From the sequence record PP430152.1: a stretch of 40,995 nucleotides of DNA. One strand, given 5' to 3'. This document shows, piece after piece, positions 3,561 through 4,659 of this stretch (within the stretch, counting starts at the first letter, position 1; each line of letters opens with the position of its first letter). The notes beneath the pieces were generated by a model. The model had not been told where the DNA came from. It saw nothing but the letters and a program-made list of their open reading frames with translations, and made no database searches. The DNA is from Enterobacteria phage FtMidnight. Both the position numbers and the translations under genes were made by a program.

Positions 3561-4646
3561 ATGTTATCTAATGCAATGCGCCTTTATGATATAGCAACCC
3601 GCCTTCAGGTTTATACTGAAGGCGTTAAAGCCCATGAAGCCGCCGAATTTAACAAAATAATGTTTGAAATTGGAAAAGATTTGCAAAAGCACTTTTCTAA
3701 TTTGCGTTATTCAAACCTTGACGCACTGACAAAAGTTCAATTAAACCAACTTTTAAGGGCTGTTCGTAAATCACAAAGCAAGATATTTAGCAAGTACGCC
3801 GAACAATTGGGCGATAACCTGAAGGCGTTTATGTCGGCTGACTTGGAATTAAGCCGCCGTGTATGGGTTTCAGCATTTAACGAAACAGACGAAAAGACCC
3901 GCATTTATTCAAACGCTGAAGCTATTGAAGAAATTGAAAGCGGGGCATTCTTTGCGGTTCCTTTGTTCGGCAAGGCTTCAGTTACTGGCAATGATGACCG
4001 CCTTTGGTCGCAAGTGACAAACGCGCCAATTTCAGCAAACGGCTTGTATTTGCTACCGTTCATTAAAACTTTCACCAATTCGGCACAAGCTGGGTTTGAA
4101 AACATAATACGGCAAGCATGGGCAAATCATTTAAGCGTTGATGAAACGCTTGCTTTGTTAGTTGGTGACGGTTCAACGGTTCAAGGTACTGTTTCCCAAT
4201 TGCGGCGCGTGAACGTGCAAGCCGGGGCGGTGATTGAAACAACCTTTGCCCATGTTGCGGCTATTGTGGGCATTGCTGTAAGTTCGGCTTTGTTTGATTC
4301 ATATACTTGGCATTCAGTTATTGACGGTTCAACAACTGAAATTTGCATTAGTAGAAACCAAAGAACATACCGATACGGTGAAGGGCCAATACCGCCCGCG
4401 CATATTCGTTGCCGTTCTCACATAGCCCCGGCTGTTCCGGGTGCTGATGACATTGAAGACGAAACCTTTTATACTTGGGTTAAGCGCCAACCGCCAAAGG
4501 TTCAAGATTACGTTCTAGGCGCGGCGGTTGCTGGTAAATTGCGAGAAGGCGAGTTAAAATCAAAAGACGTTTCTAAATTCAACAACCCAAGACCTTTAAC
4601 GCTTGTTGAGTTCAAGAAAAAGATTGTTGAAATTTTATCAAGTTGA
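3561..4646 (+). CDS. head morphogenesis / minor head protein (Mu gpF / SPP1 gp7-like)
   Basis: 361 aa; ATG 3561 with RBS AAGGGG; segment YTWHSVIDGSTTEICISRNQRTY resembles the conserved Mu-F-family core; position after portal. Confidence 0.5.
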   Translation: MLSNAMRLYDIATRLQVYTEGVKAHEAAEFNKIMFEIGKDLQKHFSNLRYSNLDALTKVQLNQLLRAVRKSQSKIFSKYAEQLGDNLKAFMSADLELSRRVWVSAFNETDEKTRIYSNAEAIEEIESGAFFAVPLFGKASVTGNDDRLWSQVTNAPISANGLYLLPFIKTFTNSAQAGFENIIRQAWANHLSVDETLALLVGDGSTVQGTVSQLRRVNVQAGAVIETTFAHVAAIVGIAVSSALFDSYTWHSVIDGSTTEICISRNQRTYRYGEGPIPPAHIRCRSHIAPAVPGADDIEDETFYTWVKRQPPKVQDYVLGAAVAGKLREGELKSKDVSKFNNPRPLTLVEFKKKIVEILSS

Positions 4647-4659
4647 TACAGTGTATCAA
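4643..4659. repeat. perfect 8-bp inverted repeat TTGATACA-g-TGTATCAA overlapping the stop codon of the head morphogenesis gene
   Basis: read directly: ttgatacagtgtatcaa at 4643-4659; TGA stop at 4644-4646; scaffold RBS AAGGAG follows. Confidence 0.6.

Follow-up and report, generated by a model that had tools for sequence, protein, structure and literature searches.

The sequence of Enterobacteria phage FtMidnight (record PP430152.1), analyzed here as a single window of 40,995 nucleotides (nt), contains a perfect palindrome, TTGATACA-g-TGTATCAA (in full TTGATACAgTGTATCAA), at positions 4643-4659, where a head-morphogenesis gene gives way to the scaffold gene. A first-pass annotation of this DNA had reported the palindrome, its overlap with the stop codon of the upstream gene and the identity of the two genes, and all three observations hold. 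The palindrome is exact, and one extra pair on each side makes it a 19-nt perfect palindrome, GTTGATACAgTGTATCAAC; the TGA lies in its left arm; and PHROG matches identify the upstream gene as an SPP1 gp7 / Mu F-like head-morphogenesis gene and the downstream gene as a head scaffolding gene, which is followed by the gene for the major capsid protein (Table 1). The palindrome and the scaffold ATG are separated by 23 nt. The region has approximately 70% DNA identity to Septimatrevirus- and Kilunavirus-like siphophages (Pseudomonas phage 73, PaMx42, Stenotrophomonas DLP1 and Burkholderia KL1), and an uncultivated viral contig encodes a scaffold protein 97% identical to that of the window. The G+C content of the window (1-40995) is 46%; the abstract on PSA-KC1, a cultured Pseudomonas relative, gives roughly 54%, well above this value. 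No tRNA genes were found in the window.

Taken by itself, the palindrome is within chance expectation for 41 kb. Perfect palindromes of the 8+1+8 type occur twice in the window, as compared with a mean of 1.3 in dinucleotide-preserving shuffles, 37% of which contain at least two. The palindrome is significant only because of the comparison with relatives described below, in which the conserved form is that of an RNA hairpin. In sense-strand RNA, hairpin 1 reads GUUGAUAC-AGU-GUAUCAAC, with an 8-bp stem and a 3-nt loop, and occupies positions -41 to -23 relative to the scaffold ATG. It is contained in both the minimum-free-energy and the centroid folds and is moderately stable (-6.8 kcal/mol alone in the window; mean -7.6 kcal/mol across relatives). 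The annotation had judged the loop too tight for a stable RNA hairpin of the full stem, and one base is indeed too few for such a loop; the inference drawn from this was nevertheless wrong, as the 8-bp stem with an AGU loop does fold and it is this form that is conserved.

Hairpin 1 is followed by a single-stranded linker and then by a second hairpin, which the annotation had missed and which lies over the ribosome-binding site. Hairpin 2 begins 7 nt past hairpin 1 and 22 nt past the upstream stop codon, and encloses the Shine-Dalgarno sequence AAGGAG (4669-4674), located 8 nt ahead of the scaffold ATG. It is found in the centroid fold and in the fold of the isolated element, and it is weak (-3.0 kcal/mol alone in the window; mean -2.4 kcal/mol across relatives). 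The linkers of 39 relatives have a median length of 7 nt, with A making up 51% and G 5% of their bases. Both hairpins share an (A/G)GU triloop, with the two loops about 23 nt apart. The element therefore consists of two hairpins with the same triloop, the second of which occludes the ribosome-binding site of the scaffold gene.

Table 1. Coordinates of the genes and RNA features at the head-morphogenesis/scaffold junction of the window.
Feature	Position	Strand	Remarks
Head-morphogenesis (SPP1 gp7 / Mu F-like) gene	3561..4646	+	phrog_241, E 2.9e-75; 3' end runs into hairpin 1
TGA stop of head-morphogenesis gene	4644-4646	+	within 5' (left) arm of hairpin 1
Whole element (hairpin 1, linker, hairpin 2, start codon)	4638..4688	+	covariance model, 64.3 bits, E 1.7e-16
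Hairpin 1 (reported palindrome)	4642..4660	+	stem 4642-4649 with 4653-4660; triloop A4650-G4651-U4652
Single-stranded linker ACAACCC	4661..4667	+	
Hairpin 2, CAAGG-AGU-CCUUG	4668..4680	+	triloop A4673-G4674-U4675; encloses Shine-Dalgarno AAGGAG
Scaffold ATG start codon	4683..4685	+	
Scaffold gene, presumed target of the element	4683..5396	+	phrog_206 (head scaffolding), E 3.6e-47
Major capsid gene	5410-6387		downstream of scaffold gene

Scaffold homologues were gathered by protein similarity only, blind to RNA, using tblastn on phage records, viral contigs and metagenome contigs with protein alignment. The resulting census sample comprised 82 distinct regions upstream of scaffold homologues. 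Hairpin 1, for which the stem had to reach 6 bp and to carry an NGU triloop centered 28-35 nt before the ATG, is present in 44 of these 82 regions, with stems of 6-9 bp (shuffles: mean 0.29, maximum 4), and hairpin 2, for which 4 bp and an NGU triloop centered 5-10 nt before the ATG were required, in 45 (shuffles: mean 0.75). Conservation in relatives, which the annotation had proposed as a check, is thus observed. The stem of hairpin 1 is 5-9 bp long among relatives, and the element is retained down to 35-50% scaffold identity (loci L187, L188, L154 and L156). Its range covers phages of Pseudomonas, Stenotrophomonas, Xanthomonas, Burkholderia, Variovorax and Rhodobacter as well as uncultivated viruses from soil, freshwater and marine sources. 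It is missing from the scaffold-upstream regions of Lokivirus W9 and Shy, Dhillonvirus HK578, JWX and loci L022/L144.

Eleven GenBank relatives carry hairpin 1 at the same position with its sequence changed and its pairing maintained. The hairpin reads GCUGAUAC-GGU-GUAUCGGC in PaMx42 and DoCa8, GCUGAUUC-GGU-GAAUCGGC in phage 73 and Ab26, GGCGAUAC-GGU-GUAUCGUC in KL1, GCCGAUUC-GGU-GAAUCGGC in LPPA15 and GCUGAUUC-GGU-GAAUCAGU in KP1. Several of the pairs in these relatives are U.G or G.U, which pair in sense-strand RNA and are A.C mismatches on the opposite strand. The hairpin lies within coding sequence (…SRRYGVSS*) in KL1, VCLv11 and LPPA15, and after a TGA in the other GenBank relatives. An A-U to U-A swap in its stem replaces Tyr-Gly-Val by Phe-Gly-Glu, indicating that the constraint acts on the RNA and not on the peptide. 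The arms of hairpin 2 covary in the same manner (GUAGG/CCUAC, UUUAGG/CCUAAA, GUAAGG/CCUUAC, AGGU/ACCU, AGGA/UCCU, AAGA/UCUU, CUAAG/CUUAG and AUAGGC/GCUUAU).

These impressions were quantified on alignments. In a MAFFT alignment of 25 close-relative junctions, which included two misaligned distant sequences, hairpin 1 is 90.8% paired and 6 of its 8 pairs have changed on both sides, a result matched by none of 500 shuffles. A structure-blind MAFFT alignment of 30 diverse junctions gives 98.8% of cells paired and compensatory changes in 8 of 8 pairs for hairpin 1, and 91.7% pairing with compensatory changes in 4 of 4 core pairs for hairpin 2; here too 0 of 500 shuffles equal the observed values, and pairing is 30-43% when the partners are slid. 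RNAalifold independently predicts exactly these two helices. When 38 distinct hairpin 1 sequences were anchored on their loops, all eight stem pairs were found to have changed on both sides (112 cells), every stem position varying among relatives, and a ninth, outer pair that was included in this test proved not to be conserved. The covariation score of hairpin 1 in this set is 0.877, as compared with 0.211 for shuffles and about 0.1 for slid partners. Compensatory changes are therefore seen in 12 of 12 pairs, as looked for in a structured cis-regulatory mRNA element, and the junction almost certainly carries a conserved RNA structure of the sense strand.

The loops behave differently from the stems. 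Among the 38 distinct hairpin 1 sequences the G and U of the loop are invariant and the closing C-G pair is 97% conserved. When no constraint was placed on the loop, 52 instances of hairpin 1 gave GGU 31 times, AGU 12 times and UGU once, with a closing C-G in 46, and 50 instances of hairpin 2 gave AGU 31 times, GGU 6 times and UGU 3 times. The two loops are most often 23 nt apart, the majority of spacings lying within 20-27 nt. The loop of hairpin 2 remains (A/G)GU while the register of the Shine-Dalgarno sequence shifts (AAGG-AGU, AGGU-AGU, AGGA-AGU, AAGA-GGU, GGGA-GGU). Two properties by which operator hairpins are recognized are thus present, namely conserved unpaired nucleotides on a stem of free sequence, and overlap with the Shine-Dalgarno sequence of the target gene, found in hairpin 2.

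The element is also specific to its place. A covariance model finds a single strong match in the window, the element itself, and the next best match scores 14.3 bits. In 170 other loci (about 1.07 Mb) all matches of at least 40 bits end at the start of a scaffold homologue; the whole genome of RcSpartan contains one such match, and two Lokivirus genomes contain none. Pattern searches, a scan for NGU-triloop hairpins and the covariance model with filters off revealed no further copies in the window. Genomes that have the element carry it once, and it invariably ends at the scaffold ATG. The second-best match of the window, at 30920-30977 on the minus strand (14.3 bits, E 0.036), resembles the element in a generic way and is a different motif: its hairpin has 8 bp and a larger loop and precedes an A/C-rich spacer, followed by the ribosome-binding site and ATG of a gene on the minus strand. 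The initiation region of the major capsid gene (5396-5418) can form AAGG-AAA-CCUU over its ribosome-binding site and has the same ATGGCACTT start as the scaffold gene, with AAA as its loop, and a conserved (A/G)GU hairpin before the major capsid gene is absent in relatives. A further UGU triloop tops an 11-bp hairpin, CCUGAAGGUAA-UGU-UUACUUUCAGG, at 24497-24521 on the minus strand, within a block of replication genes read from that strand.

Since the stems drift while the identical loops, their spacing and the weak hairpin over the Shine-Dalgarno sequence stay fixed, we take the best explanation to be a translational operator in which a trans-acting factor recognizes both loops, although we put the chance of this mechanism at somewhat less than even. 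The element probably governs the level of scaffold protein synthesis. The weakness of hairpin 2 (mean -2.4 kcal/mol) suggests that it needs help to block initiation. A factor binding both loops would most simply be a dimeric or cooperative RNA-binding protein; its binding would keep hairpin 2, weak in itself, closed, so that 30S binding and scaffold synthesis would be blocked. A ribosome reaching the upstream stop codon would open hairpin 1 as it terminates there, and repression could thereby be relieved.

The scaffold gene of phage P22 is autoregulated post-transcriptionally by free scaffold protein (Casjens & Adams 1985; Wyckoff & Casjens 1985, as cited in PMC5529062), and by analogy free scaffold protein may be considered the leading candidate for the binder. 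The more specific proposal, in which unassembled dimeric scaffold protein would shut off its own translation through both triloop hairpins, with a basic block and coiled coil at amino acids (aa) 37-88 as the binding surface, is in our estimation unlikely. This segment (4791-4946) holds the most conserved block of the protein, EDTGALKRAKDRE, which is invariant and basic, followed by a heptad-rich helix. Its similarity to the GCN4 bZIP domain in phmmer is sub-significant (E 0.15-0.66) and may be a matter of coiled-coil bias. The scaffold protein gp7 of phi29 has reportedly been likened to GCN4 and found to bind DNA (Morais et al. 2003). If the proposal is true, the autoregulation of scaffold genes, known in P22 since the 1980s, would gain a cis element defined in sequence; the literature searched describes no operator for it.

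A number of observations weigh against an operator. When the open reading frames of the window were compared with the complete genomes of the element-bearing phages RcSpartan and Langgrundblatt1 and of W9 and Shy, which lack it, no phage gene was found to track the element, which implies that the binder, if there is one, is a core phage protein or a host factor. The N-terminus of the scaffold protein and its conserved basic block are alike with or without the element, which speaks against scaffold protein as the binder, and close scaffold homologues (those of Lokivirus W9 and Shy, and of locus L022) manage without it. The scaffold protein is needed in large amounts, so that a repressing structure is not obviously expected at its gene. 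The conservation of the hairpin 2 loop could partly reflect the Shine-Dalgarno sequence itself (AGGAGGU). Finally, the literature search returned neither transcript data nor data on protein binding for this group of phages.

Much of the same architecture could also be explained with no factor at all. Hairpin 1 may insulate an A-rich, G-poor standby stretch and a weakly closed ribosome-binding site from the upstream coding sequence, with initiation at the scaffold gene linked, by termination-reinitiation or by unfolding, to ribosomes that terminate in the 5' arm. The composition of the linker fits this explanation, as does the upstream stop codon, which about 36 of 53 lineages have within the 5' arm of hairpin 1, 5-9 nt ahead of the center of the loop, and which may be UGA, UAA or UAG in otherwise unrelated stems. 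The size of the 30S footprint on mRNA is well established, and positions -41 to -23 correspond to the 5' edge of the region so covered; moreover, the Lokiviruses lacking the element have overlapping genes or genes spaced by 16 nt, the classical arrangement for coupling. This account leaves unexplained, however, why drifting stems should go with an invariant G and U in both triloops and an invariant closing C-G. Some relatives also have the stop codon outside the 5' arm: in KL1, L020 and L119 it comes 11 nt past the loop, and elsewhere it precedes the loop by 12-35 nt. In addition, a ribosome halted in hairpin 1 falls short of hairpin 2, which begins 22 nt past the stop. We regard factor-independent initiation as a somewhat unlikely explanation. 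A processing or stability function, the processing signal being the second possibility raised in the annotation, appears distinctly unlikely. On this reading hairpin 1 would mark a site of cleavage or shield a 5' or 3' end, and the part of the late transcript that encodes scaffold and major capsid would thereby become more abundant than the part for terminase, portal and morphogenesis proteins. Its appeal is one of position: hairpin 1 sits where few-copy genes give way to genes needed in hundreds, and a strong hairpin at 6399-6424, after the capsid gene, means that the scaffold-capsid block is bracketed by hairpins, a comparable stem-loop being annotated after the coat gene in the P22 record and, according to that record, present also in HK97 and lambda. 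A fixed loop sequence is, however, no requirement of exonuclease barriers or 5' stabilizers, and neither is a second hairpin that repeats this loop at the ribosome-binding site. An RNase III site was rejected, as this enzyme needs about two turns (roughly 20 bp) of double-stranded RNA and the stem, 8 bp in the window and 5-9 bp in relatives, is far below the length of its substrates. A search of the literature found no transcript-end data for this phage group. The hairpin at 6399-6424 itself, CCAACGGGG-cgtaaaaa-CCCCGTTGG, has a G+C-rich 9-bp stem, starts 12 nt past the major capsid stop codon, with TTGTAT after it, and probably acts as a leaky terminator or stabilizes the mRNA.

The other possibility favored in the annotation was a binding site for a dimeric protein, and an operator or promoter-associated site of this kind would account for a 19-bp palindrome that is perfect in the window and for a sigma-70-like match (10/12) on the minus strand at 4659..4632, the only promoter-like match at the site. 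That match consists of TTGATA, a 16-nt spacer and TAAAAT with an upstream TG, its -35 hexamer coinciding with the right arm of the palindrome. As judged from sequence comparison, this reading is contradicted: the half-site sequences drift while pairing is kept, full pairing of hairpin 1 is seen on the plus strand in 28 of 38 distinct relatives and on the minus strand in 9, G.T positions become A.C on the other strand, and only 5 of 38, the window among these exceptions, are perfect Watson-Crick palindromes. The conserved center, (A/G)GT, is asymmetric, and relatives do not keep the promoter-like hexamers, CCGATT or CCGATA taking the place of TTGATA. A DNA site is therefore highly improbable. 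Readthrough of the UGA in hairpin 1, which would fuse the morphogenesis and scaffold proteins, is suggested by the fact that the reading frames 3561..4646 and 4683..5396 of the window share one frame and have the TGA as the sole stop between them. Most relatives, however, have a second in-frame TAA right after hairpin 1, where the window has CAA; the frame relation between stop and ATG is 0, 1 or 2 at similar frequency in relatives, and in phages of the KL1 type the hairpin is simply coding. It follows from the second TAA and the lack of frame conservation that the in-frame arrangement of the window is incidental and not a readthrough device, and recoding is extremely improbable. Several further candidates were considered and rejected. 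An intrinsic terminator does not fit, as the stem is A/U-rich and followed by ACAACCCC, no terminator scan match falls at 4642-4660, and relatives have no U run either. A mimic of the tRNA-Thr anticodon was dropped because of the paired-closed triloop and the C where U33 would be, a CsrA site because hairpin 1 has no GGA, and a DNA hairpin like the ops element of RfaH because the stem exceeds the size of a transcription bubble. Pairing of the loops with the linker or with codons 2-3 was also dropped, the candidate pairings being too short and inconsistent.

If a translational operator is nevertheless what the element is, it has partial counterparts in known systems. The leader of Escherichia coli thrS contains two anticodon-like hairpins bound by the ThrRS dimer, and in CsrA/RsmA targets such as the glgC leader an upstream loop site and a Shine-Dalgarno site are bridged by a dimer. 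The present element shares with these an upstream hairpin and a site overlapping the Shine-Dalgarno sequence, approximately 20 nt apart and with the same short recognition sequence in the loop, as well as conserved loop nucleotides on freely covarying stems. It differs from them in its (A/G)GU triloops, as thrS has 7-nt anticodon-like loops and CsrA recognizes GGA motifs, and in that the target is a late structural gene of a phage and the binder is only putative. Among phages, the coat proteins of MS2, Q-beta and PP7 act on the replicase start and gp43 of T4 and RB69 acts on its own mRNA, so that a structural or abundant phage protein serves as translational repressor. Their operators are likewise small hairpins in the initiation region with essential loop bases and a free stem; unlike the present element, they are single hairpins with bulges or larger loops, and none is known to have the C-(A/G)GU-G top. 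Two hairpins are found here, the upstream one enclosing the stop codon of the previous gene. The leader of T7 gene 10, one of the 5' stabilizing hairpins, with a 5' stem-loop, an unstructured spacer and a strong ribosome-binding site, also resembles the element in having a hairpin, an A-rich spacer and AAGGAG before a highly expressed head gene, but the T7 hairpin is at the 5' end of the transcript, its loop is not known to be conserved across a family and the T7 ribosome-binding site is not enclosed in a hairpin.

The likeness to P22 is one of gene class and gene order (portal or morphogenesis, scaffold, coat), together with regulation at the mRNA level. We know of no cis element for scaffold autoregulation in P22, and none turned up in the papers searched; the P22 scaffold protein is not among the 497 tblastn matches to that of the window. 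The leader of P22 gene 8 (L191, NC_002371, 3851-3866) contains a 4-bp hairpin, CGGC-AGUGUA-GCCG, with the sequence CAGUG, 36 nt before the AUG. This resemblance is too weak to call and is not treated as evidence.

No description of the motif was found in Rfam or in the papers searched, which contained nothing on a scaffold leader motif, and a literature search on transcripts of Septimatrevirus-like phages found nothing. The families of Rfam 15 gave no match across the whole window at gathering thresholds, and none of the matches up to E 10 within 4000-5400 overlaps the element. The text of a large catalogue of phage RNA candidates (PMC10690425) does not mention scaffold genes. The element is regarded as a cis-regulatory leader or translational-operator hairpin not described in these sources. 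From a single late transcript, tailed phages have to produce scaffold and coat proteins by the hundreds for each handful of portal, terminase and minor head proteins, and the setting of this ratio is understood in very few systems; the motif is located exactly at that expression boundary. Being compact and defined in sequence, it offers a handle on scaffold autoregulation or translational coupling, and it is also a candidate small RNA-protein pair for engineering.

The motif can furthermore be used as a marker for annotating the start of scaffold genes. In the record of Pseudomonas phage FE013 (L025, PQ213798.1; 214-1308) the scaffold gene is unannotated; a 'hypothetical protein' of 1.8 kb, read from the opposite strand, covers it, probably through an error of annotation. 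The morphogenesis gene of PSV3 (L008) is broken into several short coding sequences.

Other tight perfect palindromes of the window are found at 16297-16314 (AACTTCAAGCTTGAAGTT), 23361-23377 (TTCAAGCAtTGCTTGAA), 25342-25361 (ACTTGCAGCaaGCTGCAAGT) and 27313-27333 (AATACTCAAaaaTTGAGTATT). Palindromes with arms of at least 9 nt and a spacer of at most 3 nt number four in the window, as compared with 1.07 in shuffles, 3% of which reach four. G+C-rich hairpins at or near gene ends (10493-10517, 28938-28963 and 39432-39451), for example AAAAGGCCGG-gtcaa-CCGGCCTTTT after the open reading frame 8935..10479, are likely terminators.

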